Origin: a virus
IMG/VR virus record: IMGVR_UViG_3300029305_006221
Span: 64,001-128,000 of that record
Length of the DNA stretch: 64,000 bases
Reading direction: 5' to 3' (one strand)
A program made the translations under genes and the position numbers. A model generated the notes under the pieces. It was not told where the DNA came from and did not search any database. It was given only the letters and a program-made list of their open reading frames with translations. Numbering within the stretch: the stretch's first letter is position 1; each line of letters opens with the position of its first letter. Shown one piece after another: positions 1 to 47,151 of this stretch.

Positions 1-110
1 TATGGAATTACATAACCGCCAATCTCTTTGGCTCTTTTTTCCGCCTCTTTTTTATTGGTAAACAAATCCTCAAAAGCGCAAGTATAATCTTCACATACTA
101 CATAGACTTT
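1..110 (-). CDS. hypothetical small protein. N-terminal part only; the ORF runs off the window start
   Basis: ATG at 110-108 preceded by an AGGAGAAG RBS. Reads MKVYVVCEDYTCAFEDLFTNKKEAEKRAKEIGGYVIP with no stop before position 1. Confidence 0.4.
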
Positions 111-140
111 CATTTTTTCTTCTCCTTATATTTTTTATGA

Positions 141-161
141 GAGAGGGCTTTGCGCCCTCTC
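141..161. other. GC-rich inverted repeat GAGAGGGC-TTTGC-GCCCTCTC that overlaps the TGA stop of the 160..513 gene
   Basis: Perfect 8-bp stem. Same core as the hairpin at 778-797. One of a family of GGGCGC/GCGCCC hairpins between early genes. Confidence 0.5.
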
Positions 162-513
162 AATAAGTGTCATAGCCAAGTATCTCAGCGGTTTCTCCGT
201 CTACAAGACCAAGAAATATTGCATTGTCAAAGTTGTCATCAGCAATCTCTTGACATTTTGCTATAAAGTCTTCCATTTCTTCTCCGTCTTCTTTCTTGAG
301 TTCTACAAAGAAGACTTCTCCGCTTTCTTCGTCTACAAAGTTGCTATCAAGCCACTCGCCAACCTCTGTGATATCCCATATTGCTTTGTTTGTGTCTAAC
401 ATTGTTTTTACCTCTCTTTTATGTATTTGTATCAAGAGCAAGTTGTCTGTCTGCTCTAAACTACTCAATGGTTTCGGGTATCTCAACCGTGCGTTCTCCG
501 AGTTTTCGTTCAT
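160..513 (-). CDS. hypothetical acidic protein, 117 aa
   Basis: Intact ORF with no in-frame TAG. Sits directly downstream of the consensus promoter at 546-574. Confidence 0.6.
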   Translation of the reverse strand: MNENSENARLRYPKPLSSLEQTDNLLLIQIHKREVKTMLDTNKAIWDITEVGEWLDSNFVDEESGEVFFVELKKEDGEEMEDFIAKCQEIADDNFDNAIFLGLVDGETAEILGYDTY

Positions 514-545
514 CGTTTCCGAGCCTTGCTCTTGATTACATACAT

Positions 546-574
546 ATTATATCATAAATAAATCTATTTGTCAA
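546..574 (-). promoter_or_regulatory. sigma-70 consensus promoter (TTGACA-17-TATAAT) on the minus strand
   Basis: Minus strand reads cacTTGACAaatagatttatttatgaTATAATatg. -35 = plus 569-574, -10 = plus 546-551, spacer 17 nt. Confidence 0.7.
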
Positions 575-610
575 GTGTTTTTGCAAAAGTTTTTTTGAAA
601 TATCGAACAA

Positions 611-728
611 GTTTACAAAAGGTTCATAATTTAATAGTAGGTGTTAAACTATTGCCTTTACGGGTAACAAATTTGAAATGAATGGTTCATAATTTTGTGT
701 AAAAAAGTTTACAAACTGTTCACAATTG
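611..728. repeat. cluster of operator-like repeats GTTTACAAA-n3-GTTCA(C/T)AATT upstream of the promoter at 546-574
   Basis: Three copies: 611-632 GTTTACAAAAGGTTCATAATTT, 684-696 GGTTCATAATTTT, 707-728 GTTTACAAACTGTTCACAATTG. Related copies at 1425-1455 and 1963-2054. Confidence 0.5.
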
Positions 729-761
729 CGCAAAGCGGCTCGCGCGCGATTGTGTGCGAGC

Positions 762-797
762 CGGCAAAGAAAAGAAGAGGGCGCAAAGCCCTCTATA
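762..797 (-). terminator. rho-independent terminator on the minus strand
   Basis: Minus strand reads AGAGGGCTTTGCGCCCTCT then TCTTTTCTTTGCC, immediately after the stop of the 798..974 gene. Confidence 0.6.
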
Positions 798-974
798 TTA
801 GTTTATCGCTTGAATACAAACTACATCATCTGATGTTTCGTATATTTCAACGTCAGGATTGTCTGTTGAAGTCTTGACCTCTACATATCCGACATAGCCA
901 CTCATAACCTCAAGCATAATAGGTGCGTCTTGAGGCATTTCTTCAAGTTTCTTTATAAGTTCTCTTACTGTCAT
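798..974 (-). CDS. hypothetical small protein, 58 aa. Below the 60-aa cut-off of the ORF track
   Basis: AGGAAAGGAGA RBS, then ATG at 974. Reads MTVRELIKKLEEMPQDAPIMLEVMSGYVGYVEVKTSTDNPDVEIYETSDDVVCIQAIN and ends at TAA. Confidence 0.45.
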   Translation of the reverse strand: MTVRELIKKLEEMPQDAPIMLEVMSGYVGYVEVKTSTDNPDVEIYETSDDVVCIQAIN

Positions 975-1003
975 ATGTATCTCCTTTCCTTATGGGGATT
1001 GCC

Positions 1004-1279
1004 TTAGCAATCCCCCGTGTAGCAACCCATATAGGGGTCAAAGCCGCTCTCATCAGCTTCATCGACGAAATCATCGTCCCACGCATCATTATAGATGAGG
1101 CTATTGGCGCCGTGGTCATAGATGATTTGCGCCATAGCGGTTGCGCGCTCTTTGTCGAGCATATCGTCTGCAACAAGGTCAACAAGTTGCGCGATTGCGA
1201 TAGTGTGAATATCCTCAAAGCCGAATTCCTGAACCGCCAAGTTCTGACAGTTATGAAGAGTAAGTTTGGTGTAGTCCAT
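1004..1279 (-). CDS. hypothetical acidic protein, about 91 aa. The ORF track shows 1004..1321
   Basis: An internal ATG at 1279 has a good AAGAGGT RBS. Asp/Glu-rich. The overlapping ORFs 943..1218(-) and 992..1417(+) are judged spurious. Confidence 0.5.
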   Translation of the reverse strand: MDYTKLTLHNCQNLAVQEFGFEDIHTIAIAQLVDLVADDMLDKERATAMAQIIYDHGANSLIYNDAWDDDFVDEADESGFDPYMGCYTGDC

Positions 1280-1385
1280 AGTGTACCTCTTGATTATGTA
1301 TTCAGTAAAAGAGCCTTGCAAGGTAGGAGTGCATATTGCGAGGGTGCTTTTTCAACCCTTATCTCCTCTCTCTTACTGTACCATT

Positions 1386-1414
1386 ATTATATCACATATC
1401 GGGATAGAAGTCAA
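1386..1414 (-). promoter_or_regulatory. sigma-70 consensus promoter (TTGACT-17-TATAAT) on the minus strand
   Basis: Minus strand reads ctaTTGACTtctatcccgatatgtgaTATAATaatgg. -35 = plus 1409-1414, -10 = plus 1386-1391. Confidence 0.7.
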
Positions 1415-1424
1415 TAGGCAGAAT

Positions 1425-1455
1425 GCACAAACTTTCAATCAAATATTTGTGTAAC
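1425..1455. repeat. operator-like repeat of the same family as 611-728, in inverted orientation
   Basis: Plus strand GCACAAACTTTCAATCAAATATTTGTGTAAC. Its reverse complement contains GTTACACAAAT and AAAGTTTGTGC. Confidence 0.4.
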
Positions 1456-1475
1456 CTATACAAATCGCGTAAAAC

Positions 1476-1535
1476 GTCGCGCCACGACCGCCGGCGCGAC
1501 GGCGAAAGGAAAAGCGCCTTGATGCTGCAAGGCGC
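1476..1535 (-). terminator. two rho-independent terminators in tandem on the minus strand, closing the GC-rich ncRNA
   Basis: Minus strand GCGCCTTG-cagcat-CAAGGCGC then TTTTCCTTTC (plus 1504-1535). Then GTCGCGCC-ggcggtcgt-GGCGCGAC then GTTTT (plus 1473-1500). Confidence 0.65.
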
Positions 1536-1899
1536 TTTATAGTCTACCTCTTGCAGGAGGACAGGAGGTAAGCCATCTGCAAGAGGTTGGTCATATGCTC
1601 GAATGAGGGTGGTTATACGCTACCTACCAAAACGCTCCCGACTATATGCCGTAGGCTCGGGTTATTGGTCGTGGTTTATGGAGAGCCACGCTCCGCTCCG
1701 ATATTGAACACAAGCCCTCGGAGTGGGGTAGGGTAGTCGTTGTTCGCCCCTTCGCTACCAATAGGGGGCGGCTACTTTGCAGTTGCCAAGCTGGACGGTG
1801 TTATCGACTATCCCAACTGTCGGTCAAGGGGCGGTCAGCCGTTACTCTCGTGTGGATTGGGTGCGATTGTCGAGGTCTGTCGCTCCGCTCTCCCTTTGA
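1504..1899 (-). ncRNA. unidentified structured GC-rich non-coding RNA, about 400 nt
   Basis: A GC-rich island sharply bounded within an AT-rich genome. No ORF apart from a spurious 62-aa one. Transcribed on the minus strand from the perfect extended -10 promoter at 1907-1935 and closed by tandem terminators. Long-range complementarity GGGAGAGCGGAGCG (5' end) with CGGAGCGGAGCGUGGCUCUCC, and an 11-bp stem ACCTCTTGCAG/CTGCAAGAGGT. No match I can recognise to tRNA, tmRNA, RNase P, 6S, group I or hammerhead motifs. Confidence 0.6.
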
Positions 1900-1906
1900 C
1901 ACTTAT

Positions 1907-1935
1907 ATTATACCACAATGGATACTAAATGTCAA
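1907..1935 (-). promoter_or_regulatory. sigma-70 consensus promoter with extended -10 (TTGACA-17-TGgTATAAT) on the minus strand, driving the ncRNA
   Basis: Minus strand reads cctaTTGACAtttagtatccattgtggTATAATataagtg. -35 = plus 1930-1935, -10 = plus 1907-1912, TGn at plus 1913-1915. Confidence 0.75.
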
Positions 1936-1962
1936 TAGGTTTTATAAATTTCTTTATGAATT

Positions 1963-2054
1963 TTTTGTAAACAGTATATGAATATTGGGATAAGTTTTGT
2001 TCATAAAATATTTACAATTTGGAAACAAATAATTTACAAATCGTTCACAAATTG
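1963..2054. repeat. cluster of operator-like repeats of the GTTTACAAA / GTTCACAA family upstream of the ncRNA promoter
   Basis: 1963-1985 TTTTGTAAACAGTATATGAAT (inverted copy), 1994-2020 GTTTTGTTCATAAAATATTTACAATTT, 2031-2054 AATTTACAAATCGTTCACAAATTG. Confidence 0.5.
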
Positions 2055-2109
2055 CTTTAGCGGCGCGTCGCGGGGGATGACGCGCCGCGCAGTCAATATT
2101 AAGCGGATA

Positions 2110-2129
2110 AGGGCGCACTCAGGCGCCCT
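2110..2129. other. GC-rich hairpin AGGGCGC-actca-GGCGCCCT with the TGA stop of the 2119..2439 gene in its loop
   Basis: Member of the hairpin family at 141-161, 778-797, 2656-2675 and 3119-3137. Confidence 0.45.
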
Positions 2130-2439
2130 CGTCATCAAGCTGTGACTCTATGAATGGTATAATAGTTTTAAGTATCTCAACCTCTTTGGCGGTCAACCCT
2201 ATAATATCATAGTAGGCTATCACTTCCCCAATATCCTTATAGATAGGATATACACTTGGGGGCAGATATTTATTAACCTCAATATATGGCTCACTGTCGC
2301 TGTCTCCCCACATTCTGCGCCCTTCTTTATCGTATATGGCGAGGACGTCACCAAAGTATCTTGCAAGGTATTCTGCCCACTGTGTAAACTCATTTTCGAT
2401 ATGTATTCTTTTCATTTGTTTAATTCTCCTTATACTCAA
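2119..2439 (-). CDS. hypothetical protein, 106 aa
   Basis: Intact ORF with no TAG. Confidence 0.55.
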   Translation of the reverse strand: MSIRRIKQMKRIHIENEFTQWAEYLARYFGDVLAIYDKEGRRMWGDSDSEPYIEVNKYLPPSVYPIYKDIGEVIAYYDIIGLTAKEVEILKTIIPFIESQLDDEGA

Positions 2440-2665
2440 ATTTAACTGTTACCTTTGTATAACCGTATTGCTCTAAGTGTCGAGGGGTTAGCGCCCTACT
2501 CTTGCATAATGACAGTATGGCGCGCTCTTGATAATACTTCTTATTTGCAATATAATCCTCTATGCTTTGTATCTCTACTCTGCGGGTAAGGGGTTGGCGC
2601 CCCTTATCGCTTAATAATATTATTCTTGCATATAACATAATCCTACCTCTTGAGTAGGGGCTCAT
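2420..2665 (-). CDS. hypothetical protein, 81 aa
   Basis: Its ATG (2665-2663) overlaps the TGA stop (2664-2662) of the upstream small ORF as ATGA. The overlap suggests translational coupling. Confidence 0.5.
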   Translation of the reverse strand: MSPYSRGRIMLYARIILLSDKGRQPLTRRVEIQSIEDYIANKKYYQERAILSLCKSRALTPRHLEQYGYTKVTVKFEYKEN

Positions 2666-2770
2666 TTGAGCCCCTTATGATATTTGTATTCTTGATATAT
2701 GGATATTACTATTGTCGGAATACTTGCAATGCCTATAACCAATATAAAACCCAACATTTCACCTAACATT
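2662..2770 (-). CDS. small hydrophobic peptide, 35 aa. Below the ORF-track cut-off
   Basis: GAAGGGAG RBS, then ATG at 2770. Reads MLGEMLGFILVIGIASIPTIVISIYQEYKYHKGLK. Its stop lies in the loop of the GC hairpin at 2656-2675. Confidence 0.35.
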
Positions 2771-2788
2771 GTTATATACTCCCTTCTT

Positions 2789-3094
2789 TTAAAATGTATT
2801 TGTAAATGCGTCAACACTTAATTCCACAGGTTTGTCGAATGAGTGCATATATATTTTAATTATTATAATGTCTCCCCTATTCCAGTCTTTTGTTATTTCA
2901 TAGCCGTGTTCATTCATAAGCTCGGTAAGATATTCATTGCTTGTTAAGAGGTCAAGCAACGTATTTTTATATGAGTAAACAGTTAAGGTATTATCATAAG
3001 AAATACCATACGCATATTTTTCAGATACTAAAACTGCTGTTGTGTTATAAGTGCAAAAATATTCATTGTTAAAGATTTTTACTGTTTTTTTCAT
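2789..3094 (-). CDS. hypothetical protein, 101 aa
   Basis: Intact ORF. RBS AAAAGGGGGAT upstream of ATG 3094. Confidence 0.55.
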   Translation of the reverse strand: MKKTVKIFNNEYFCTYNTTAVLVSEKYAYGISYDNTLTVYSYKNTLLDLLTSNEYLTELMNEHGYEITKDWNRGDIIIIKIYMHSFDKPVELSVDAFTNTF

Positions 3095-3125
3095 TTTTAA
3101 ATCCCCCTTTTATATAGCGGGGCGC

Positions 3126-3308
3126 TTATTGCGCCCCTATTAACTTTTGAGTGTTACCGATATTCGCTTTATATTCAAAGTATAGCGCCATTTCATCAAG
3201 CTCCTCATCTGTTGGAATATGTGGCTTTAATTCGTTTTCTAACTCTTGCAACGCTATCTCAAACTCAAGCTCTCTTTTATTGTCTATGTATCTGTCAATA
3301 ACTACCAT
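3126..3308 (-). CDS. hypothetical protein, 60 aa
   Basis: Intact ORF. Its TAA stop lies in the loop of the GGGGCGC-ttatt-GCGCCCC hairpin at 3119-3137. Confidence 0.5.
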   Translation of the reverse strand: MVVIDRYIDNKRELEFEIALQELENELKPHIPTDEELDEMALYFEYKANIGNTQKLIGAQ

Positions 3309-3311
3309 TAT

Positions 3312-3566
3312 TTAATCCCCCCTTGTATCAAACTCATCTTGAACATTATTAAAAAAGTATTCAACATTATTGACGTCAATTCTGTAATACTCACAAAACT
3401 CTTTTCTTGCTTGTTCGTCGGTGTTTAGCTTGTGGAGTCTTGCGTTATGGTTTTCTATATTATCAGAACCGTAACAAGCTAAAAAAGTATAGTGTTCTTG
3501 TTCCCAGCTTGTGCCTTTGTTATAAACGACGGGCTTTTTAAGTTTGTAGCATATTGTGTTAGCCAT
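3312..3566 (-). CDS. hypothetical protein, about 84 aa. The ORF track shows 3312..3614
   Basis: The internal ATG at 3566 (MANTICYKL...) is preceded by an AAAAAGGGGAT RBS. The 16 codons upstream are a poly-A read-through artefact. Confidence 0.45.
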   Translation of the reverse strand: MANTICYKLKKPVVYNKGTSWEQEHYTFLACYGSDNIENHNARLHKLNTDEQARKEFCEYYRIDVNNVEYFFNNVQDEFDTRGD

Positions 3567-3626
3567 TTTTTTTATCCCCTTTTTATTTTTTCTTTTTTTT
3601 GTTAAAGTGACCATTTTTAGATATTG

Positions 3627-3776
3627 TTAATTTATTGCAACCAATATCCATTCTTTACAGTCGCAACCATTGTTTTTCATTGCTTCCCATACATTAATAC
3701 CTTTAATGTGTTTTACTGTTCCATTGTACTTGTTTGCAATTCTGAAAGTTAAAAGATTGTTGTTTGTGTTCATCAT
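3627..3776 (-). CDS. hypothetical small Cys-containing protein, about 49 aa. The ORF track shows 3627..3878
   Basis: Internal ATGATG at 3776 with an AGAGAGGTAAAAAA RBS. The upstream part is a poly-A/poly-Lys artefact. Confidence 0.4.
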   Translation of the reverse strand: MMNTNNNLLTFRIANKYNGTVKHIKGINVWEAMKNNGCDCKEWILVAIN

Positions 3777-4077
3777 TTTTTTACCTCTCTTTTCTTTTTT
3801 TGTTTTTTGCTTGACTCTCTCAAGCTCTGTAAATATTATACCACTTTTAAAAATAATTGCAAGAGGTAAAATGCACAAAGTTTAAAATTTTTTTAGGTAT
3901 TTTTTTGTGCGTTTTGCCAAGACTACACAGAGATATTGGTAACATTTGGAAATGGTAAAAAATGGGAGGCTTTCAGGATAAATTTTCCAGAAATTGCCAA
4001 TACCCCTTTGCTCACGAAAACTCTCTCCTAGAAAATTCTTTTTATTCTAAAAAACGAAAATCATCCCCATTTCATCA

Positions 4078-4104
4078 AAAAAGAGGGATTTTAAATCCCT
4101 CTTT
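4078..4104. terminator. bidirectional hairpin terminator AAGAGGGATTT-taa-AATCCCTCTT
   Basis: Perfect palindrome with a T-run on the minus strand after the stop of the 4146..4457 gene. Confidence 0.55.
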
Positions 4105-4145
4105 CTCTTTTCTCATATTCACTCTATTTTTTACCCATGCGTATA

Positions 4146-4457
4146 TTAACCGCCAATTCGATCGTTTACGCACTCTCCCAAATCAAATAGATGCCAAACA
4201 TAAGGCCCATGTGTTAAACTTCCTATAAACTCCACTTGGCGCCCATTGCTTTTACTATACACGTTATCAAGCGGCCACCCTGTTCCTACACAAGCAACCA
4301 TGCGCGCGACCTTTGGCGCATTAGTGTTTACTCTTGCCCAAAAACACATATTATCTGCAGGATCCAATCCAAAGCTAACAATCTGCGCGCCCTCTGGCAA
4401 ATAATATTCCTGATTAATAATATTAGGCTCAACATTATATTTCCAAATACTATACAT
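4146..4457 (-). CDS. hypothetical protein, 103 aa. Last gene of the leftward early block
   Basis: Intact ORF with no TAG. Divergent from the late-operon promoter at 4529-4557. Confidence 0.6.
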   Translation of the reverse strand: MYSIWKYNVEPNIINQEYYLPEGAQIVSFGLDPADNMCFWARVNTNAPKVARMVACVGTGWPLDNVYSKSNGRQVEFIGSLTHGPYVWHLFDLGECVNDRIGG

Positions 4458-4528
4458 TTTTAAATCTCCTTTTTATTTTTATTATAACATTATTTTTTCT
4501 TAAAGTCAATCTAAAATACCACACTTTC

Positions 4529-21084: not shown

Positions 21085-24000
21085 ATGGCTAATTAGGGAA
21101 GAATTACTTTTGGCATTGGTTTTAATGTAGATTAGTCTGGTTTAAATTAGCTTAAGGCTTCTTTAGCAAGTTTATAGAATATGCAAACTAGAGATTTAGT
21201 AAATGTAGATTCTAAAGGGAAAGCATAGGCTAAATTACGTGAAATTAAAGAAATGGCTGGCCAAGTAGAAGCTGCTCTTTAGCAAAGTTTTAACCCTGCA
21301 TTAAACACCTATAATATTGATACTTTTAAAAAGAAATTAAATGAAAATGTAGGAACTTTATCTTAGGTAAAAGCAAAAATGGCAGAGGCTGGCGCTGAAG
21401 GTACAATAGCGTTTAGAAATTTAGCTACTGCAATTTCTTCAACGAAATTACCTTTAAGAGAATCTCATGATTTACTTAAGGCAATGGGCACCACCTTAAT
21501 GAACACTGTAAAATGGAGTATTGCATCAAATGCAATTAATACTGTAACAGGTTCTGTTCAAAAAGCTTGGAGCTATACAAAGTAGCTTGATGAATCATTA
21601 AATAATATAATGATAGTAACCGATAAAAGCGCGGATTCGATGGCATAGTTTGCGCGCTAGGCAAATAAAGCCGCAAAAGAGTTAGGTAAAAGCACTAGAG
21701 ATTATACGGATGCTTCTCTTATTTACTATCAATAGGGTCTTGATGATGCATAGGTAAAATCTAGAACCGAAACGACATTAAAGGCGGCAAACGTAACGGG
21801 TTAGTCTGCAGATGTTGTATCTGAATAGTTAACTGCCGTTTGGAATGGTTACAAGGTATAGGCGCAAGAAGCTGAGTTATATGTAGATAAACTTGCGGCC
21901 GTTGCTGCAACTACGGCGGCCGACCTTGAAGAACTTTCAACTGGTATGTCAAAAGTTGCTTCTGCAGCTAATACAATGGGAGTAGATATTGACCAGTTAA
22001 ATGCAATGTTAGCAACTGCTGTTTCTGTAACGCGTCAGGCGCCTGAGTCAGTTGGTACTGCATTTAAAACTGTATTTGCGCGTATTGGCGATATTGAAGC
22101 TGGCATAAGCGATGAAGCTACTCTTGGTGAGTATACGAAATAGATGCAATCAATGGGTATAAATGTCCTTGATACAAATGGCAAACTTCGTGATCAAGGA
22201 GACGTAATTGAGGAAATTGGTAATAAATGGAATCAAATGTCTCGTGAGCAACAAATTGCTCTTTCTCAGACTATGGCTGGTACCAGACAATATAATAATC
22301 TTTTAGCGCTGTTTGATAACTGGAATATGTATGAGCAAGCAATGAAAACCTCTGTAAATGCAGCTGGAACATTGCAGAAACAATAGGACACTTATATGGA
22401 ATCTATTGAAGCGCATATGGAGCAACTTAGAACTGCCGGCGAGCGCGTTTATCAAGCATTGTTAGATCCTGATAGTGCCAATGACTTACTTGATGTATTA
22501 ACTGAAATAGTTGATAAATTTGGTAGCTTTATAGAGTCTATTGGCGGCGGTGGTAATTTATTGATGTCGCTTATTCCTATTTTAACTAGAGTATTTTCAG
22601 GTTCTATTGCAACAGGCTTAACAACTTTTGTAACAAACCTTAAAAATGCAGGCCAAGAAGCAACAACATTAAAATCGGTGCTCTAGGGGATAAATGAAAT
22701 AGGATCCTTAGACAGTTTGACCGAAGCTGATAAAAAAATTAATGATTTAAGACGCACTTTGGTGCTTTTGCGACAACAAGGTGTTATAACAATAGAAGAA
22801 TTTAATTCAATGTCTGCAAGTGTTACAGAGTATGGAGATGCGATTTCAGAAATTGAAAGAAAAAAAGAAAATAGAGAAAAAACTAAAGATAGATTAGGAG
22901 TTTTAACAGATGCAGGCTTAGCAGAAAAAGGTAATCATAATATAGCTAAAGATAAAGCGAAAAGAGAAAAATATTTCGACAGAGTCTATACTTTTGGAGA
23001 TGAGTTAAGCTCCAAAGGATTATCGGAAGAAGCCATTAAATCTTCTATCGGAGATAAAAACGCAGCTCTTGCAAAGAGTGGTGCAGCAAATGCTTATAAA
23101 GAAATTAATGACGCATTGATTTCAATTAAAAATAATATAGATGATATTGATAATAAAAATAAAGAATTTACTAAGGGTATTTAGACCACTATTGCTAATT
23201 AGGAAAAATATAGTAGAACCATTATAGATTCTAAGCGATAGTTTGAGAAACTTGTGGAAAAAACAGAATCTTTAAAAACTTTTTACACTGATACGACTGA
23301 AGGAAAAAAATTTGAAAATTATGAAGCTAGAATTTCTAAATTATTATCAAAAGAACATCTTGACTCTGAAGAAATGGCGATATTGCAAAAATTGCAAAAT
23401 GAATATAGTAGTTTTATTAACAGTCATTTACAAGAAGTGTCGTCTTTAGGCAGTAAAGAGGAACTAGAATCTATTGATATTAAAATTAAAGAATTAACTG
23501 CTTCATCAAATAAGTTTAAACAGTCTATTGAAGATATAAATAAAGCTCATAGTAATCAAGAAGATTAGATTGAAAAAATTAAGTCGAAGTTTGAAGAACT
23601 TGATAAAGAAGCTAAAAAATTAGAAGATGCAAATTTACTTGGCGGAGCAAGCAGAGGAGATTTAACTAAAAGAGCTAATAGCATTAGAAATTTACTTGAT
23701 GACACTAGTAAAAGAGGAGAGCTCTTAAAAGATCCAGAAAAATTATCACATTTATATGAAGAATATGAGGCGACACTGCAAAAAGCAATAGCAGAAGGTA
23801 GAAAAGAAGTTAAAAATTTATCTACTGATATAGATAAGGGTATAACTGATGGAGTTGGAAAAGCAAAGGCTCAAGCAGAAGGTCTTGGAGAGGCTTTAAG
23901 AAATGCTCTTTCAAAAGCTTAGCTAGAGTTAAAGATAAAATAGTTTGTTAATTTAACTTCCAATATTGCAATGGCTGGTAATGCACTTCGAAATTTAATT

Positions 24001-27000
24001 AATTTAGGAGACATTTGGAATAATCAAGATTTAGAACTAGGGGAAAAAATATTTTAGACAATAACCAATGTAGGCTCCTCTTTAAGTATGCTTCTTCCTA
24101 CCATTACAATGATAACAGCTGCAATTTCTAAGAAAACTGCTGCAACTACTGCTTCAACAGGCGCTACAGCCGCTTCTGCGATAACTGATATGTTTTATGC
24201 TAAAACACAGGACGAAGTTACCGAAGAAATGACTGACTAGGCATTTTGGTTAAAATCACTAAAAAGTCTTTAGAACGATCTTAATGATGAACAGAGAAAA
24301 GCAATTGCAAACACATTGAAGGAAGCTGCGGCAAGAAAAAAGAATAATGAAGAGCTTGCTAAAGAAGCTTTGCTTAAAGATACTGAGCAAAATATAAACG
24401 ATAATAAAAAATCTTTTAATCTCTTTAAATCAAAAAAAGCTCCAACAACAGCAGCAGGTAAAGTTTTAAATGTTGGTGGAGGCGCCTTAGCGGCGGCCGC
24501 CGCAGCATATATAGGAGCAACTTTAACTTCTAAGCTTGTTACCTCTTTGTATGATTAGCAAGAAGCCAATTTTAAAGCGGCTTCAGAAGCAGCAAAATAG
24601 GCCGAGTCTAATTTAAACAAAGTAACCGAAGCCTATGACAATTTATCAAATTCACTTTCTAATATTTCTTCTTTAAAGGATTCTTTAAAGGATTTAACAG
24701 AAGGTAGTGTTGAATGGGAAAAAGCGGTTGCTGATATTAATGCTGAAACTAGGTAGCTTATTGAAACATACCCAGAAATAGCTAAAAATGGCTATTATGA
24801 AAATGGAGTATTAACCCTAGACTCAGAAAGTTAGTTAAAAGTTGAAAGAGAATTGTTAAACCAAAGATATAAAGCTCAAAACTCTAAAATAGTAGCAGAT
24901 GAGACTAAATAGGCAGCAGAAATTGCTGCAAAACAAGAAAGTCTTGCAGGCGAGCTTAATTATTTGAATGAACTTTCAGAATTGGGGACTGGGGCAACAG
25001 TAGCAATTTCTCTTGCGCTGGGTGGTATTTTTGGGTTAGCAACTGGTGGATTAGCAGTTCCAATTATTGCTGGATTAGGACTTGGAGCCTTTGGAGGAGG
25101 ATTTTCTACATACCTTGAAGAAGAAGAAGAAAATGATACAGAAGAGGCTTTAATAAAAGTAGTAAACAAATTAGCAGAGTCAGAAGAGAAAGACTTAAAT
25201 GGATATTTACAGAATAGCTCTAAGCATCTCGCAGAATTGTTAGACAAGAATGTTGAAGAGTTAACAAATGCAGAAAGAGCCTTATTGAGTAATACCAGTG
25301 AAATAAATGCTTTAGCTTAGGAGATAAGAAAAGCAAATGAGTTAAAGCTCATGCAAGATACTGAGTTTTATCGTCAAAGATATTTGTCTCAAGGATATTC
25401 TGTAGAAGATGCGGCTGCAATGGGAGGTATGACTGCATCAGCTACCGATTATGCTGCAGAAGAAGAGGCGATAAGTAAACGCGCCGAATAGATAATGAAA
25501 AAGAAGGGGAATAATAAAGATCTCATTATCTAGTGGGCAGAATCTTAGGGAATTACTTTAACCAAGGACGATATTAAAGAAACAGGCGGAGCTAATTTTA
25601 AATATAAAAACGCTAATGGCGAATGGGTATCAATGAGCTATGAAACAATAGCTCGCCAATAGGCCACCACAGAAGTAAAAAATACTGCCTCTAGTGAAGT
25701 AAATGCATTAGAATACAAGAAATAGCTTAACGCAATTGTAAAAGGTATTTCTTTAGAAGGAACAGATATTTTAAAATCACTTTTGGCTTCTAATAAAGAA
25801 ATTTTAGCTGAAAATATTGAAGAGTTTAATAATGCCACTATTGATGAACTACAAAAGATATGGGAAAGGGCTGATGAATTAAATTTATCAAGTGAGGCAA
25901 AAAAAGCGCTTGGAAAAACTATTGAGGAAGCTAAAATATATTAGGAAAATATTGCCACAGTAGAAAACTGGGGTGAAAGCACTTATGATGCTATTAATAA
26001 GATTTTCAATGATAATGGCGAATGGTCTAACATTTGGAATAATTTTAGTGCCTCTTAGATTAGAGCTTTTGGTAAAGCATTAACTAAAATCGAATTATTC
26101 GGTGGAAAACAAGCAGCTAAAGCAGCAGAGTCTATATTTAGTAAGATGACTGATGCAGATGCAGAATCTGTGCTTACTAATATGAACTGGGAATCAGAGA
26201 CTTTACTTGCAGACTTTTCTGCAGAAATGGAAAAAGTTGGTAAAGTTTTAGATTATACTAGTGGAGAAGGTTTTGCGATTGCGTATGCTTTATCTCGTGC
26301 TAATGATTAGATGGTGATTTCCAAGGAAGCGTGGAAAGAAACTGCAAGCATTCTTGAGTCATTAAATGAAGAGCAAGCATCGTTAGATATGGATAATTAT
26401 TAGCATCTTATTGAGATGTATGGAACAGCTATCTCTAAGTATTTTACTCAAATGGAAGATGGCACTTATAGATTGATAACTGCCTCTACTGATTTTGCTA
26501 AGACTATTGATGACTTGGAAGAAAGAAAAATAGAAGCAGCTATTAAGACTGAAATTGAGTCTATTAGGACTTTTGACGAAGAGTATGATAAAATTTTAAA
26601 TGATTTTGTTTTTAATACGATACCTGATTCCGACGATGGAATTTCTGCTTCTAAAATTAAAACGCTTGATGAAATAATTAAGGTAAAAGGATATGAAAAT
26701 GCTAGTTTAACAGGAAAAGATCTTAATAAAACTGAAGGTTTTTCTGAATCACAAACTCATGCGGTGTTATAGGGAGCACTTACTCTTGATGAATATAAAG
26801 GATTAAATAAAGTAATAGATTTTGTTTATACTAAAACATATGGCGATAACTGGCGAGATAATGGTGATGCTTGGAATGATATGACGGAATAGGTTGGCGG
26901 AAAGAATTTTATCATTGATTTAGACCCCGCTGGAGATTCAACATCATTTACTTATGATGAATTACAATAGGAATTTACAGAAGAAGAAATAAAAAAATGG

Positions 27001-30000
27001 TTTAAAAATACGACATCATCTGGAGGATATTATGCAAATAATGTTGAAGCTAACTATGCACAGCTTACTAACGCAATCGCTAATCAAGCAGCCAAAGAAC
27101 GAAATGAAGCTCTTGGAGTCGATAATAAATATGTAAAAAAATCTGATATTGCTCAATGGTTATATTAGTTATCTGCTATTGGCGCGTTAAATAGTGAGCT
27201 TTATACCAAATATTCACAAGAATTAGACGGACTTCCCCCAGAGTCGGAATCATTAAAAGTGCCAGAAGATGGTGGAGATTGCGCTTTTGTTGCTGATGTT
27301 AAAAAAGACCTTGAATCAAGTGATGTTAAACCAGATACTGAAAAATTAAACGAATATATTGATCAGTGGATTAGAAGCGCAGATTCTCAAGAAGAGTTTG
27401 ATGAACGAGTAGCAGAAGCTCAAGGACTAGCTTCAACAGTTTTAGGAGACGAGTTTGATGAAAAAGCCTTTAAAGATACGGTAAAAGAATTACAAATTTC
27501 ATTAGGAGTAAAACTCGAAACTAAGGCGCTTGAAAACTTCAAAACTGAGATGGATCAAATCTCTAATTTAATTTCTAATTTAGATAGTAAACTATCACAC
27601 TTATCATCTGTGGCAGATTCCTTGTATGGACAAGATAGACTAGATTATATTGAGGAATAGAATAAGGTTATTCAACAATAGATAAAGCTTCTTGAACGTC
27701 AAGCTAAGATTGAGTAGCTAGAACTCAATAGGCAAAGAACGTTTACCCCTGGAGAAAACAACACTACTTATGAGGCTGCGTTAAAAGATCTTGCTCGATT
27801 AGCAGGCTATGCAAATGCTGATATTATGAGTGAAGCTGAGCTTTGGAACGCACTCGGTATTACAGATGTAACAACTCAAGAAGGTGCTTAGAATTCTCTT
27901 TTAAATATAAGAGAAATGTTTGCTCAGCGTGGAATAGCTGCTGATGAAAATCTTAATAAGTTATACCTTGCAGCGATTGGTAATCTAGAAACTATTTTGG
28001 AGCCAGTTACTTCTGGAAAAACAAAGTATGCTATAGATGAAAAGAAAGCTCAAGAGTTAGCTAATAATCTTGTTAGTTTTGAACATAAAATTGAATTTAC
28101 TTTAGATGAAGGTGAATTAAAAAGAGAGTTTGAGGCACTAAAACGAGAAGTATTTATTGATGAAGAAGATTTTTCAGAAATAACTAAATCTTATATTACA
28201 GATTATCAAACCGCAATTAGTGATCTTACAACTATTGAAGATGCTCTTAAAGAAATTGATAGTTTAAACATTTCTGCAGAAGCAAAGCTTGAGAAAAGAA
28301 AAGAATTAACTTCTCAATACGGAGAAAAGTTAAAAGAGATTTAGTAGATTGAAGAATCTATTGATCAATAGAGACTTGCAGCTTTAAATAAAATTTCTGA
28401 GGGATATGAAAAACAAATTTCTTATCTTGAAGAAATTAATGGTCTTTTAGATACTCAAAGAAGCATGATAGAGCTTATTTATGGCGAAGATGCGTATGAG
28501 ATGTTAAATTCTTATTATAGTTCTTCTCTTGATAATGCATTAGCTATTCAAGAAAGCACTCAATAGAGATTTGCAGCAGCTGCTTCAAACTATAGCAGAA
28601 TTAACGATACTACAATGAGTGACGAAGAACGCGAAGCTATTATTGAAGAATATACTGCAGCAGGACAGGCAAGCGCAGAAGCGATGTATTCGGTAATGGA
28701 AGCGCGCCGTGATAAATATCTGAATGATACAGAGATTGCTATAAAGAATTTTAATAAGAGTGTTTATGGTAGTTTAGATACAGAGCTATTTACCAGTGAA
28801 TGGGATTGGACTAAATCTCAAATGGATAAATACTATGATTCTGTATAGAGCTTGTTCGAAAAAGATAAACTTGCTGTTCAATTTGATACTGCGGCTAATG
28901 AAGCTACTTCACTTCGTGCACAAGAGCAGATTAATAAACTTAAGAGAGAAGAATTGGCGCAACTTGAAGAAATTGAGAAATTAAGTGAGTATGATGTGCA
29001 ACATGCACAAAAGAAGCTTGATATCCTTTAGGCCGAAATTGCGCTTCGTGAAGCTCAAGAGAATAAAACTCAAATGCGCTTAATGAGGGGCGCAGATGGC
29101 TCTTATAGTTATCAATATGTTGCTGATTAGGCGGCAATTGTTGAAGCTTAGAATAAACTAACAGAAGCTCAAGATGCTTTATATAATATGGAACTAGATG
29201 AATACACTTCTTCTATTGATGAATTTTAGGGCGCAATGTAGGATTTAGCGGATGTAATTCGCAAATTCGGAGAAGATGGTATTTACACCACAGAAGAATT
29301 AGCATTGATTGAGAAGCGTAAAAAAGAAATTTAGAATTTAGCAGAGAGAAGCATAAGAATTAGAACCAATGTTTTTGAATCTGCTGAGTTAGCGGCTTCA
29401 ACTTTTGGTAAAGATCTTTCTGAGCTGACCCAAGGAACTGTTCTTTAGATGACTAAAGATATCGATGCTATTATTAATGAGGTAGCAAAAAATGGTATTG
29501 ATAATAGTTATCAAAGTTTAATGGATACAATGCTTACTATTTCTAATAAATATTTAGATAAATAGAAAACTGGAGCAGAAGAATTGGCCACTGTAATTGG
29601 TTCTGCTGATCCAAGTTCTGGATTAATCGGCTCTTATTAGACATTATCAGAAAAATAGGATGCGGTTATTAAACAATATTAGACTGAATATTCAGAGGTA
29701 TCTATTCTTGCTGGACAATATGATATCCTTAAAGCTTCTCTTGAGCGAGTTAGGGATATGTATATTGCAATTGCAAACGCAAGAAAATTAAGCAATAAAG
29801 AAGAGGAAGAAGAGATTTCTGGACCTGGTCCTGACAATACTAGAACTGGTGGACTACGAAAAACTAATAAAACAAGTAGTGAGGTTGCTAGTTTATTTAA
29901 TCAAGAAGTTTATTTGTATTCAGAAAGAAGCCGATTCGATGAAGAGGGAAATAGAGTAGCAAGCTGGAGAACAGGAAATATTCATACCTATAATAGTTCT

Positions 30001-30588
30001 GGTGAATTAGATATTATTACTGTTTCTGATCATACTGGTAAAGATATGAAGAACACTAAATATACGGTTATAAGTTCAGATATATGGACAGATGCAGAAG
30101 GTTGGGGATATGTGCAAGTGCGAGATAAAGATGGAGAAATTTTTTATCTTCCAATTGAATTTTTAAAAAATGAGAATAAGAATTCAGAGAACGGCCATTG
30201 GGCAGTATTAAATTCTGGATTATTTGATGGTCTAGAAAAATATGATACTGGTGGATACACTGGTGAATGGGGCACAGATGGTCGTATGGCAATGCTTCAT
30301 GAAAAGGAATTGGTTCTTAATAAAAAAGATACTGAGAATTTCTTAGACGCACTTTCAATTCTTCGTGAGCTTAACCTTTCAATGATGGCGCAAATCGGCC
30401 GCTTTGGAATGCCATTTAGCAATTCACAAAATTCTATCTTATAGCAATTAGCTTCTCAACCAATTGAGCAAAATGTTACAATTCAAGCAGAGTTCCCGAA
30501 TGCGACAGACAAAGATGAGATTAAAGAGGCGTTTAATGACCTTATTAATCTAGCTACTTAGTATGTGCATTAGGATGATAAATTTTAA
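21085..30588 (+). CDS. tail tape measure protein, 3167 aa with dozens of TAG codons read as sense
   Basis: AAGGAGG RBS, then ATG 21085. Thirteen ORF-track fragments from 21379 to 29758, all in frame 1, are joined only by TAG. No in-frame TAA or TGA until TAA 30586-30588 across the inter-fragment gaps I checked by hand (23568-24316, 24558-24964, 25320-26416). TP901-family core motif IGNKWNQMSREQQIALSQTMAGTRQYNNLLALFDNW at about 22200. Long Ala/Gly-rich and coiled-coil regions. Confidence 0.8.
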
Positions 30589-30620: not shown

Positions 30621-30642
30621 AAGAGAGAAAAGGAGAGATAAT

Positions 30643-33600
30643 ATGAGTAATATAGTTGAAAATTTATTTTCAGCGGTTGATATTCAAATTGATAGTAAAT
30701 TGCGCCAAACGGACTATACGCGCACCATAATAGGAACTGTCATTGGATGCATTGACCCAGAATAGCGTATTTATAAGATAAACTATCAAGATACTATATT
30801 TGAAGCTTAGGCGCCGACTGGAGAATATGGTAAAGATGAGAAAGTTAAGATACTTACCACCAATGTTGAAGATGAGTCACTTAAAGTGATTGTTGGGCGC
30901 ACCTCAGTTAGTGATTTAACCACTTTAAAAGAGAGCTCTTTATATACCTCTTTAGGCTCTTCTATTGTAGAGGATAATGAAGAGGATGATATTGTTGAAT
31001 ATACTCTTTCTGATTCTAAAACAATACTTTATGAAAAAGGCGAGTCTAATAACCTTTTGAAAGTGAATGAGACTTTATTAGAAAAGCATCTTAAAGAGTC
31101 TATGATGTTTTCTATTGGCGCAGAAGTTTTAGCTGAACTAAGTTCTGGAAGTATAGATTTAGTTTTTGAATTAAGTTACAAAGGATAGCTTGTTAAATCT
31201 GCTGTAAAAATAGAAATTACTCAAAATAGCTTTGATTTTAAATCTTATCAAAGTTATTTTAAAGATTATGAATTTGATACTATTGAATCTATTTATTTGG
31301 AAAAAATAAATGAATTATCTAATTCAGAAGTATTAAAAATTAAAAATATAACCTTTAATATTATAAAAGAAAACGAAAGTGCCAATCGTATGTAGGCGGT
31401 TATCCATGGATATGAAGGAGATACTCTTCACGATAAAGTAGAGCAGATTACGATTGAGGCAAGAATGATGTAGGGCGCCACTTTTATAGATCCTGATTTA
31501 TGTGGTTTTTAGTGGTATATTGAGGATCCTTGGGAAGAGAGCGGCTGGAAAAAATTGGAAACGGCGCGCTGGTAGAGACCTATTGTATAGCTTACTTCAG
31601 AAGATATATATTATTCTCCAATGAAATATAAGGTAGAAATTACTTATGGAGAAATGATTTTTGAAGCTAATACTATTTTAAAGAATTTAACCCCTTCTTA
31701 TTCTGGTTTATATATCTCATAGCAAACAGTAGACTCTTATGAAAAAGTTCTTATTGCAATGAATGAAAATGAAAAAGAGTGTCAATATAAATGGGAACAC
31801 ATAGATGTTTATGGTCAAAAAGACACATCCTATTCTACTGAACAATAGATATCAGTGTTCTTAGATAGTAATTATAATCTTTGGAAATGCCATTACAGAG
31901 ATGGTGACAAGTATATTGGATATGCTTCTATAGTTATTAATAATGATGATTTATTATACTTGCCTGAATAGACTGTGGAATTCGCTTTTAGCGATAATGA
32001 AGATCATGCACCTTTTGATGGACCTTGGGCACCTCGTATAGGAGAAATAAGTAATATTGATAAACCAATACTTTGGAAGCGAGTTACTAAAAATATAGAA
32101 GAAGGTAAAAATACAATAGTAATAAGTTCGTGTAAAGAAAGAAATATTGCTTATATAGAGACTAAACAACAAGATCTTTATCGTATTTGGAGAGTATATT
32201 ATACTAATGGTTTTATTGAATATAATGATATGTTAATTTCAGAATAGGATGATGGATACTAGTATATTCTCTATGGAGAGAAAGATGGGTTGATTGATAT
32301 TGATAAGAAAAAAGAAGCAACTTTAGAATCGGATATAAATACTGATTATCCATATCTCTGTTATGAAAAAACAAATACTGAAACAAGGATGGTATTAGCA
32401 AAACTAGGAACCGCTGACTATACTGGAATTCCTTCATTAACCTTCTATTGGATTGGTAATAATTATCCTTATGTAGGAGTTGAAAATAGCAAGGTTTATT
32501 TTGGGAAGCCTGATAAAGAATATGACGTATGGACGACAGAGGCTTTAGAAATTGATAATGAATATAAAAATAGATATAGAACTGAATGTCCTTATAACTA
32601 GCTTGGTAAGCTACACTATAACGAAAATACTAAAGATTGGAGTAATTTCGTTTTAGATGGTAACTATTCAGTAGATGGTCTTCCAGGAGCGCCCGGCGCG
32701 CCAGGAGAGCCCGGTAAAGCCGCTAAAAGCTTTCGATTAAAAACGGATGCTTTAATTTATAAAAAATCTTCTCCAGAATATATTGCTTTTTCAATAGAAA
32801 TAAGCGGATATGAAACTTCTGAATGGGAAATTAAAGCGGAAGTTCTTAAGGATAGCATTTGGACATCTGTAAATGATTTGGGTTTTGGAATAGTTTTAAA
32901 TCCAGATTCTAAAATTTTAACATTAGAGCATATTTCATCATTATATTCTGAAATTCGCTGCACTGCAGAATTAACCTCCAAAGAAGCGGTTGATGTTGTT
33001 ACACTTACTCGAATTGAAGATGGAGAAGCTGGTTTTAATGTTATTATTTCTAATCCGAATATTATTTTTGATAAAATTAATAATACTGCAATAGAAGTTG
33101 CAGATATTGAAGTATACCAAGGGAAAGAAAAAATTGAATGCTATGACACTAAGCCTATAACAAACGATTCTTCTAAGCGCTATGTCGCAGTAGTATCAAA
33201 CAAATATCAAAAAGAAAGTTTAAATAAACCTGACAATGCTTTAATTTAGAATTTAGTATTTTAGAAATCAGCGCCAGAAGAAGAAAAGTTGACAGCAATG
33301 ATTTCTAACCCAGGCGAGTCAGGTAAATATTATTTGCAAATTGAGATATATGATAACACAATTGTAGCAAACGAAGGATCTGTCCCAGAAATAATCTTGG
33401 ACTCTAGTATTAATTGTTTGGTTATCGATAATGGTCTTCGAATTAATATTTATAGTGAAAACTACTCTTTTTAGAATGCAGAAAAAAAATCAGTTCCTTT
33501 AGAGATTGCTGTTTAGCAAGGTCTTGCAACAGTAGTAGATAGGACAGGCACAATTTTAACAAATGTTGGCTATGAATTTTAGTTTTTTCAAGAAGGTTAT

Positions 33601-46095: not shown

Positions 46096-47151
46096 ATGTC
46101 AAATTATAATACGCAATTACAAGCAAACAATTCCTCTTTGGAGGAAATTATAACACAGCTTAATGAGTTGCCCGATGTGGGAGGTACCGACCCTATTCTT
46201 CAAGATAAAACAGTAACTCCTTCAACGAGTCAGCAAACGGTAACTGCAGATAGCGGATATGATGGATTAGATACGGTAACTGTTAATGCAATGCCTACGG
46301 CTACACAGGCAACACCGAGTATTACTGTTAATTCAAGTGGACTGATTACTGCAACTGCAACTCAGACTGCTGGTTATGTGGCGGCAGGTACTAAATCTGC
46401 AACTAAACAGTTAGCATTTCAAGCTGCGCAAACCATTATCCCTGGTACAACTAATCAGACAATTGCATCTGGACAGTATTTAACTGGGGTGCAAACTATT
46501 AAAGGCGATGCTAATTTAGTAGCGAGCAATATCGTAAGTGGCAAGAGTATTTTTGGAGTGGTTGGTACTGCTAATAGTGGAGGTGGAAGTAGTGGCGGAG
46601 ATACAAGTGCAGAAGATGGACTAGTAACTAGAACTTTGACGACTTATACAAATGATAGAGTAACAACTATTGGAAATTATGCGTTTTATTCTTGCTCAAG
46701 CCTTACAAGCGTAAGTTTTCCACAATGTACAACTATTGGAGACTATGCGTTTCGATATTGCTCAAGCCTTACAACTGTAAATTTTCCAGCGGTTACAACT
46801 ATTGGTGCTTCTGCCTTTGTAGGTTGTTTAAAACTTGCGGGAGTGAGCTTTCCAGCAGTTACAGCTATTAACCTCGCTGCATTCCAAAACTGTTCAAACC
46901 TTACGACTGTAAGTTTTCCAAAAATTACAAATATTAGTTCTTACGCATTCCTACGTTGTTCAAAACTTGCTTCTATTTATCTTGCTGCATCTACAGTATG
47001 TTTTTTAGAAGGCTCAGACGCTTTTTCACAAACTAGTATCTGGTCAAACAAAGGCTCAATCTTCGTTCCGGCCTCCTTACTTGCTTCTTATAAAGCTGCA
47101 ACTAACTGGGTTTTCTTTTCAAATAGAATTTTTTCATATAACTTCACATAA
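46096..47151 (+). CDS. receptor-binding-protein paralogue C with a C-terminal BspA-type leucine-rich repeat domain, 351 aa with no TAG
   Basis: Intact ORF. Five or more tandem LRR units of the type TIG(N/D)YAF..CS.LT.V.FP. Shared module with 44583..45689. Confidence 0.55.
   Translation: MSNYNTQLQANNSSLEEIITQLNELPDVGGTDPILQDKTVTPSTSQQTVTADSGYDGLDTVTVNAMPTATQATPSITVNSSGLITATATQTAGYVAAGTKSATKQLAFQAAQTIIPGTTNQTIASGQYLTGVQTIKGDANLVASNIVSGKSIFGVVGTANSGGGSSGGDTSAEDGLVTRTLTTYTNDRVTTIGNYAFYSCSSLTSVSFPQCTTIGDYAFRYCSSLTTVNFPAVTTIGASAFVGCLKLAGVSFPAVTAINLAAFQNCSNLTTVSFPKITNISSYAFLRCSKLASIYLAASTVCFLEGSDAFSQTSIWSNKGSIFVPASLLASYKAATNWVFFSNRIFSYNFT
46680..46960 (+). repeat. tandem ~69-nt coding repeats encoding the BspA-like LRR units
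   Basis: Reiterated ...tgctcaagccttacaa(g/c)(c/t)gtaa(g/a)ttttcca.. units. Confidence 0.6.

Follow-up and report, generated by a model that had tools for sequence, protein, structure and literature searches.

Large bacterial and phage RNAs with complex folds and no known function are few: OLE, GOLLD, ROOL, HEARO and raiA. Each has led to unexpected biochemistry. In the Firmicutes phage phi29, the prohead RNA (pRNA) is a structural RNA made from a strong early σA promoter. The Staphylococcus aureus RNAIII, and RsaE/RoxS, have several hairpins whose C/U-rich apical loops are complementary to Shine-Dalgarno sequences. GOLLD is made up of a conserved part and a variable part (PMC5737381, PMC12286853). 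Here, we describe an RNA gene in a stretch of viral DNA of 64,000 nucleotides (nt), positions 64,001 to 128,000 of the IMG/VR record IMGVR_UViG_3300029305_006221; this whole stretch of 64 kilobases (kb) is referred to as the window. Window positions 1935–1471 of the minus strand almost certainly constitute a free-standing gene for a structured non-coding RNA of ~400 nt, organised as a self-contained transcription unit. The gene lies among small, leftward and individually promoted genes of a TAG-recoded phage. The RNA appears to be a new family, in kind closest to the orphan ornate phage RNAs and unrelated to them in sequence and architecture.

The transcription unit is clearly bounded. The initial annotation had described a GC-rich island, preceded on the minus strand by a TTGACA-17-TG-n-TATAAT promoter, closed by two tandem rho-independent terminators and followed by a second promoter. 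Each of these signals was found. The GC content of 200-nt segments across 1501–1900 is 53.5–57%, compared with ~30–40% nearby. Three 12/12 sites are present in the first 6 kb of the window, and the promoter (1935–1907) is among them. Two intrinsic terminators (1538–1505 and 1500–1471) and a restart promoter (1414–1386; 11/12 plus TG) complete a discrete unit that, judged by these signals, would be strongly promoted. All homologues of the RNA have a promoter in the equivalent place and orientation, with a TTGAC[A/T] −35 element and an extended −10 element, and all lie on the same strand as the neighbouring genes. The putative +1 position was assigned from the spacing to the −10 element, and RNA copies start with GUGUCA[A/G]AGGGA.

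Homologues were recovered by way of the spurious open reading frames (ORFs) antisense to the RNA, on the plus strand, which were used as bait in metagenome and protein databases. Back-translated pseudo-protein patterns led to two metagenome contigs (L023 and L024; contigs and loci carry L numbers here). A profile of three pseudo-proteins then identified 32 predicted 'proteins' in a collection of 5.8 billion. When contigs were looked up from the pseudo-proteins, 12 of the 12 loci carried the RNA, and the pseudo-ORF was antisense to every neighbouring gene. A conserved 3′ strand pattern gave one further copy in GTDB genomes, on a short phage-like contig (L041) binned with a Eubacteriales metagenome-assembled genome; the pseudo-protein patterns had no match in GTDB genomes. 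A nucleotide search with the RNA against 50,697 GenBank phages gave no match, as did megablast of a 10-kb structural block. IMG/VR was searched with the pseudo-protein patterns, the 3′ strand pattern and the flanking proteins; phage relatives were found, none with the RNA. RNA modules were located across the collected sequences using nhmmer. The family comprises 16 distinct versions on 20 contigs, including the window copy, and the pseudo-proteins imply ~20 further copies on contigs outside these 20. Neither the conserved strings nor a description of such an RNA turned up in the literature library that was searched.

Folding of the single sequence was weakly better than that of shuffled controls (z = −2.5; −2.8 for the opposite strand). 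Hence, the case for structure rests on comparative data. An explicit model, with 59 pairs in 11 helices, was counted on 12 aligned sequences (alignment A5). In this core model 95.4% of cells were paired, compared with 89.5% in shuffles and 28–49% in slid controls. Changes on both sides were seen for 15 pairs, compared with 4.7 ± 1.5 in shuffles and 0–4 in slid controls. The best-supported helices are Hc, He2, Hb, Hd, Hz and P2. All five pairs of Hc covary (CCCC/GGGG, AGGG/CCCU, GGUC/GACC) and He2 contains three compensatory pairs (CGUGG/CCACG, CAGGG/CCCUG, CAUGG/CCAUG, CGCGG/CCGCG). There are two such pairs in each of Hb (CCCGA/UCGGG to CCCAC/GUGGG), Hd and P2, and one in Hz. Helix P2 is 82% paired. 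Helix P1 is 92% paired and compatible with the data, its positions being invariant or changing in wobble-type, G-U-compatible ways only. Invariant G-U pairs (e.g. columns 128/153 and 132/149) work only on the minus-strand transcript; the RNA strand is therefore the minus strand.

Downstream of the core, the 11-bp stem that had been noticed from the sequence (arms 1587–1577 and 1556–1546) is 98.2% paired in 10 homologues and has three compensatory pairs (alignment A6). Thus, the extensive secondary structure anticipated in the initial annotation is borne out by covariation. Conversely, the long-range helix proposed there, between 5′ GGGAGAGC and GGCUCUCC about 200 nt downstream, is not. Its partner is the loop of He2. 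This loop, GGCUCUCC, drifts to CUAUCC or CAAUCC while the 5′ end of the RNA stays constant and the helix was rejected for this reason. A brute-force search of the 12 sequences for extra covarying columns (kissing loops or pseudoknots) was too noisy and gave no covarying kissing interaction in the core. Compensatory substitutions support a fold in which a 5′ domain closed by P1 is followed by a central domain and four 3′ hairpins, with the 11-bp hairpin at the end.

Public gene callers read the locus differently, as a plus-strand protein-coding gene in which TAG is a sense codon. If TAG does not stop translation, the plus-strand frames do stay open for ~110–125 codons, and there are 32 predicted 'proteins' in public collections. 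However, all three frames are open in this way, and the open frames are a compositional artefact rather than a gene. Frame switches are required to keep the homologues aligned in the pseudo-ORFs. Most of the indels that separate the homologues (48 of 63) have lengths not divisible by three, and the variable columns divide 55, 52 and 41 by phase, without third-position bias. No promoter or ribosome-binding site for the antisense ORF is present on the plus strand, and none of the 32 antisense pseudo-proteins contains a Pfam domain. Furthermore, there are compensatory RNA pairs, and G-U pairs that are valid only on the minus strand. As the frame is not conserved, most indels are non-triplet and third-position bias is lacking, a protein-coding gene was rejected; there is scarcely any chance that this reading is correct and it is effectively refuted already. 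The minus strand has stop codons throughout all frames and no credible ORF, in line with the initial annotation, which had named conserved coding potential in place of compensatory changes as the observation that would count against an RNA. In the homologues, compensatory changes are seen and no coding signal. The phase of a short AUG-started frame over the 11-bp hairpin is not conserved, and the conservation of this hairpin is therefore at the RNA level.

At least 32 'hypothetical proteins' in public catalogues (P0001–P0032; window 1587–1928 on the plus strand) are antisense translations of the RNA gene. This is a systematic mis-annotation.

The coordinates of all elements are listed in Table 1. 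Comparison of the copies shows the family to be modular, with the 5′ interior and the central domain exchanged between copies. Thus, the interior of the 5′ domain is swapped wholesale in L033, L040 and L039; P1 is retained in most copies and weakened in L033 and L040. The central domain gives way to other structured sequence in L027, L038 and L041, and is missing from L037. The four 3′ hairpins are found in every full-length variant. They are absent from L037, a short form in which the 5′ domain is joined directly to a tRNA-like module. Short motifs are exposed repeatedly: GUAGCG occurs in the Hc and Hz loops, GUAGCC in Hc2 and GGAGCG three times. These conserved loop motifs sit beside variable flanks.

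Table 1. Features of the RNA gene, its boundaries and the tRNA-like module found in related copies. Coordinates refer to the window unless a locus is named.
Feature	Position	Strand	Description
Promoter, σ70 type, extended −10	1907–1935	−	TTGACA-17-TGgTATAAT; 12/12 match plus TG
Transcript start and conserved initial transcribed sequence	1889–1902	−	GUGUCAAAGGGAGA; putative +1; invariant among A5-aligned homologues; GGGAAAG in L041
RNA core	1902 to ~1605	−	Three parts: 5′ domain, central domain, four 3′ hairpins
5′ domain	1823–1900	−	P1, P2 and variable A/C-rich hairpin
P1	1900–1892 / 1830–1823	−	GUCAA-A-GGG with CCCUUGAC; 92% paired
P2	1887–1882 / 1839–1832	−	CGGAGC with GCUGACCG; 82% paired
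Variable A/C-rich hairpin	1876–1844	−	In 5′ domain
Central domain	1734–1829	−	49-nt block, Hc1, Hc2, Hc, candidate pseudoknot
49-nt block	1829–1780	−	Identical in window, L023 and L024 (first three aligned); highly conserved in other type-A copies
Hc1	1818–1812 / 1795–1789	−	One-sided changes
Hc2	1788–1769	−	One-sided changes
Hc	1767–1747	−	Loop YAUUGGUAGCGM; all 5 pairs covary
Candidate pseudoknot	Hc1 loop / 1739–1734	−	UAGUCG with CGACUA; one-sided changes
3′ half of core	1608–1723	−	Four hairpins; most widely conserved part of family
Hd	1723–1696	−	2 compensatory pairs
He2	1690–1670	−	Loop C[U/A][C/A]UCC; 3 compensatory pairs
Hb	1661–1637	−	2 compensatory pairs
Hz	1628–1608	−	Loop GUAGCGUAUAAC; 1 compensatory pair
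11-bp hairpin	1546–1587	−	Apical loop CCUCCUG (1568–1562), anti-Shine-Dalgarno-like; hairpin in most copies
Terminator 1, intrinsic	1538–1505	−	GCGCCUUG-loop-CAAGGCGC plus U-tract UUUUCCUUU; read from sequence
Terminator 2, intrinsic	1500–1475; UUUU 1474–1471	−	CGUCGCGCC-loop-GGCGCGACG; 9-bp GC hairpin; read from sequence
Next promoter	1386–1414	−	TTGACT-17-TGaTATAAT; 11/12 plus TG; downstream boundary of cassette, outside RNA
tRNA-like module, 85 nt	L026 8326–8242; L033 5011–4925; L037 2252–2168; L038 203–120	−	Between core and 11-bp hairpin

The strong conservation of the 49-nt block, the invariance of several loops and the physical linkage of some copies to a tRNA-like module would suit a ribozyme, or the RNA subunit of a ribonucleoprotein enzyme that, for example, processes or modifies tRNA-like substrates. 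However, no ribozyme family was matched. Moreover, the family can dispense with its most conserved block: other sequence takes its place in L027, L038 and L041, and L037 is without it. This is hard to square with a catalytic core. We give a catalytic role only a slim chance.

Parts of the unit have counterparts elsewhere. The start sequence GUGUCAA[A/G]GGGA is common to several early promoters (window 1902–1889, L001 4742, L012 2116, L025 7318, L027 5247, L037 1973 and L041 2185) and is found regardless of the product, be it structured RNA or mRNA. This suggests a 5′-end element of the early transcripts of the phage group, perhaps a stabilising stem or a promoter-proximal signal. A GC-rich terminator hairpin, GCCGUCGCGCC-loop-GGCGCGACG with a U-tract, recurs in the window (1500–1471, ~2088–2060 and 52378–52358), where it ends several units, and hairpins of this type are present in most related loci. 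Finally, the 3′ arm of the 11-bp hairpin (CAAGAGGUAGACUAU, 1554–1540) and the ribosome-binding region of the next gene (CAAGAGGUACACUAUGG, 1292–1278), both on the minus strand, agree at 14 of 15 positions. The agreement may be fortuitous or a relic of cassette assembly.

The RNA cassette is accessory within the phage clade; close relatives are without it and the neighbouring genes differ from copy to copy. Both flanking proteins recovered IMG/VR phages of 100–135 kb. In these relatives the flanking genes are adjacent, ~290 nt apart compared with ~840 nt in the window, and alignment is confined to the promoter and terminator flanks. In L001–L004, L021 and L022, all of which have both flanking genes, there is no RNA body.

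The distribution also bears on whether the RNA is a cis-acting leader or attenuator, riboswitch-like, with read-through into the downstream gene at 1279–1004. The terminator hairpins are indeed followed by a same-strand gene, and in L001 and L037 genes of that family are preceded by a long structured leader of another kind. However, two terminators and a fresh consensus promoter intervene between the RNA and the gene, and this promoter (1414–1386) is homologous to one directly ahead of an MDYTKL-type gene in L001. In addition, the genes downstream of the RNA belong to at least five unrelated families, the RNA of L023 is ended by its own terminator, and there is no match to an Rfam riboswitch or T-box. 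The cis leader class was rejected as a candidate and we consider such a role very improbable. The RNA probably acts in trans, not on the downstream gene.

The leader in L001 (4742–5000, plus strand) and L037 (1973–1750, minus strand) is a second conserved GC-rich sequence, ~170–260 nt long, between an early promoter and an MDYTKL/MTTLDKA-type gene. The two copies have 85% mean column identity, and one or more of the changes between them are compensatory (GCCGAGG...CCUCGG to GCCAAGG...CCUUGG). This leader, which the window does not have, is a candidate structured RNA in its own right.

The RNA had been left unclassified in the initial annotation, which found no likeness to tRNA, transfer-messenger RNA (tmRNA), RNase P, 6S, group I intron P7 or hammerhead cores and proposed a search against Rfam. 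We made this search, including GOLLD (RF01998) and ROOL (RF03087), and the RNA remains without a family. At gathering thresholds, Rfam 15 (4227 families) matched nothing in the window or in nine homologous loci. At E ≤ 10, scans of four regions (the window region and three homologues) gave nothing for the core; there were only chance-level snoRNA- and miRNA-type matches to unrelated families. ARAGORN called no tRNA genes, and hence no suppressor tRNA, and no tmRNA in the 64-kb window, and the tRNA model had no match at E ≤ 10 over 1300–2200. Within the reach of covariance models, tmRNA, RNase P, 6S, signal recognition particle RNA, group I and II introns, known ribozymes and riboswitches are excluded.

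Individual candidates were also rejected. The suggestion that the RNA could belong to GOLLD, ROOL or phi29 pRNA did not survive, as no covariance model matched. ROOL was matched neither at gathering thresholds in the window and nine loci nor at E ≤ 10, and the core described here is a hairpin chain of ~300 nt. GOLLD was not matched in the same searches; it is >800 nt long, with a conserved 3′ half. For pRNA (RF00044), there was no covariance-model match, the 64-kb window has a recoded ORF of 3167 codons, and the RNA is absent from relatives L001–L004. A tRNA or suppressor tRNA was rejected on the ARAGORN and E ≤ 10 results, and the mini-arm of the tRNA-like module is without CUA. In the central domain CGAC-AGUUGGGAUA-GUCG is like a D arm, and there is a CUGCAAG loop; this is resemblance only, as there is no tRNA match at E ≤ 10 and the loop triplet varies. 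A type III, ToxI-like antitoxin was set aside because no direct repeats occur in or near the RNA, and the PemK/MazF-like genes ~2 kb away are also found in loci without it. As regards a retron msr-msd or the template of a diversity-generating retroelement, no reverse transcriptase domain is present among the called neighbours of 11 loci and the region is not repeated within the 64-kb window.

Four copies carry the tRNA-like module; that of the window does not. The module comprises an acceptor stem, a 6-bp D-like arm, a long extra arm whose loop contains GGUACC, and a canonical T arm; where a tRNA has its anticodon arm there is a covarying mini-arm (4 bp, 5-nt loop). It scores 15.7–21.9 bits against tRNA-Sec, for which the gathering score is 47. 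ARAGORN does not call it and there is no CUA anticodon. A stretch of 20 nt in the T arm is found unchanged in genuine phage tRNA-Cys and tRNA-Met genes. Taken together, the identity to real tRNAs, the weak model score and the rejection by ARAGORN indicate a module that is tRNA-derived and predicted to be unable to decode. It is also evident in pseudo-proteins P0020, P0031 and P0032. The latter two led to L038 and L037, respectively, and only P0020 represents a further contig.

A smaller analogue of GOLLD and ROOL has to be weighed here, that is, an abundant RNA-only assembly (a homo-oligomeric scaffold or cage), sometimes with tRNA-like cargo. Like them the RNA is phage-encoded, some members are joined to a tRNA-like element, there are conserved and variable halves as in GOLLD (PMC12286853), and no protein gene is associated. 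The GGUACC in the long-arm loop of the module is self-complementary, and AUAU and CAUAUG occur ahead of the 3′ hairpin. Against this, RF01998 and RF03087 were not matched even at E ≤ 10, the RNA is half the size or less, and the core yielded neither a conserved pair of self-complementary loops nor a covarying kissing interaction. In addition, a hairpin chain is unlike the multi-junction architecture of ROOL (PMC5737381). We consider an assembly of this sort unlikely.

The best overall explanation, which we would put at an even chance, is a free-standing structured RNA gene whose product is abundant early and acts in trans as a decoy or display scaffold. Host RNA polymerase would make the RNA in large amounts early in infection. 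Its hairpins would then present conserved motifs in single-stranded form, by which a host factor would be titrated or occupied. On display would be GUAGCG (at two to three sites), C/U-rich loops, among them CCUCCUG, and the tRNA mimic of some copies. The factor might be an RNA-binding protein, a defence or toxin ribonuclease (tRNA- or rRNA-directed), or the ribosome or its mRNA-binding site. A decoy or display scaffold fits best because of the repeated loop motifs, the anti-Shine-Dalgarno-like loop, the optional tRNA mimic, the patchy distribution and the location among early genes. An anti-defence or decoy role is plausible; a decoy or sponge mechanism specifically is a tentative proposal. 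More speculatively, and somewhat doubtfully, the family may represent a new class of modular phage 'display' RNA. This would be an abundant early transcript of exchangeable cassettes (a variable 5′ hairpin, a swappable central domain, an optional non-decoding tRNA mimic and an anti-Shine-Dalgarno-like loop) that phages of one recoded lineage would shuffle to neutralise RNA-directed defences of the host or to commandeer translation.

Several observations weigh against the decoy or display scaffold and the structural detail behind it. The strength of the promoter and the timing of the RNA are read from sequence. Helices Hc1 and Hc2 and the candidate pseudoknot rest only on positions that are invariant or change on one side in a wobble-compatible manner. 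All copies come from one phage clade, with ~76% mean column identity. Short divergence may thus account for part of the conservation seen in the loop motifs, and with related sequences shuffle controls make significance look too high. No conserved partner gene was found near the RNA, as the neighbours vary and the shared early genes also occur in loci without it. The 64-kb window contains no antisense match of ≥12 nt, only chance 10–11-mers. Finally, an exposed CCUCCUG would pair with most Shine-Dalgarno sites and the motif alone therefore explains no specificity.

The last two points also count against a base-pairing riboregulator in the style of Firmicutes RNAIII/RsaE/RoxS, in which the C/U-rich loops (CCUCCUG and C[U/A][C/A]UCC) would block Shine-Dalgarno regions of host or phage mRNAs. 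In support of such a regulator, a covarying hairpin keeps CCUCCUG in its apical loop, although the loop bases on either side vary. This motif is present in nine of the 10 aligned hairpins (A6) and in L025 and L041. A second UCC-containing loop is found in He2, and the architecture is multi-hairpin. However, L032 is without the motif, L023 is without such a hairpin, and L029 and L034 have related C/U-rich loops only. The conserved core of ~300 nt and the tRNA-like module would also be left unexplained. A riboregulator thus seems improbable, and we favour the decoy or display scaffold.

The setting of the gene is that of a TAG-recoded phage. There are 69 in-frame TAGs in the ORF of 3167 codons (21085–30588) and 38 in an ORF of 1656 codons (30622–35592), with TAG as sense in other plus-strand ORFs also. 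Reading through TAG lengthens these ORFs sharply, and the phage is therefore TAG-recoded. No link between the RNA and recoding was found; neither a suppressor tRNA nor a release-factor gene lies beside the RNA, which close relatives are without. The promoters are of the σ70 type with an extended −10 element. Positions 1–4500 resemble an early region. The small leftward genes there are intact in the standard code and several have their own promoter-like sites. Because the L041 contig was binned with a Eubacteriales genome, the evidence points to an anaerobic Firmicutes host. The phages carrying the RNA are one group of stop-codon-recoded gut or rumen-type phages.

Other features were noted in the window and related loci. 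The window encodes an anaerobic ribonucleoside-triphosphate reductase (NrdD; 59276–62242, minus strand) with an intein-like splicing domain at residues ~141–468. Four tandem 66-nt repeats (46663–46926; 64–100% identity) lie inside a plus-strand ORF and probably encode a repeat-containing structural or adhesin-like protein. A gene for a PemK/MazF-type toxin occurs ~2–2.5 kb downstream of the RNA position in L025–L027, L029, L032–L036 and L041, and also in L001/L004. In L034 a MazE-domain protein is encoded beside it, and relatives that do not have the RNA can have the toxin gene too. For the window, the equivalent site would fall outside, past coordinate 1.

The compact and clearly bounded unit, with its consensus promoter, should make the RNA easy to express and test. 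Its natural domain-swap variants, and the optional tRNA mimic, are ready-made structure–function mutants. Antisense pseudo-ORFs can serve as handles to recover RNA homologues where a nucleotide-similarity search is impossible. Should the RNA prove to be a decoy against host defence, or a takeover factor directed at the ribosome, the warfare that phages wage with their early genes in anaerobic gut Firmicutes would gain an RNA layer. A display RNA would be the RNA counterpart of the protein anti-defence islands in phage early regions.

How does the RNA compare with known systems? Like GOLLD and ROOL, it is phage-encoded, has no dedicated protein partner gene, and can be joined covalently to a tRNA-like element as those RNAs are near or joined to tRNAs. 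ROOL is reported to be abundant (PMC12286853), whereas abundance of the RNA described here is suggested by its promoter only. In contrast to GOLLD and ROOL, with which covariance models detect no homology, the family is ~300–480 nt long rather than ~580 and >800 nt. It is a hairpin chain with one closing helix rather than a set of many multistem junctions, and has so far been found in one phage clade. With phi29 pRNA it shares the character of a phage-encoded structural RNA from a strong early promoter, the activity of which is predicted here. However, pRNA is 120–174 nt long and belongs to podoviruses of ~20 kb, whereas this genome is at least 64 kb with giant recoded ORFs. Absence from close relatives would also be unexpected for a packaging component. 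C/U-rich apical loops on several hairpins recall RNAIII, RsaE and RoxS; there is no homology, and GUAGCG and the 49-nt block have no counterpart in those RNAs. The CsrB/RsmZ sponges and phage decoys (RNA anti-CRISPRs and pseudo-ToxI) are likewise modular, with short motifs repeated on hairpins, and would match in abundance if the promoter is a guide. As one would expect of counter-defence cargo, the RNA is an accessory element of an early region. Unlike them, the RNA has no GGA-loop repeats, CRISPR-repeat mimicry or tandem repeats. Finally, the YrlA Y RNA and MALAT1-mascRNA offer a parallel for the four members with a module. The family differs from YrlA in that there is no Rfam Y-RNA match, no rsr or rtcB gene was found in the loci examined, and the window copy is without the module. 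The likeness is that a tRNA-like element, with no decoding anticodon loop, is fused to a larger non-coding RNA. By analogy, RNase P or RNase Z could process the module and so set the 3′ end of the upstream core.

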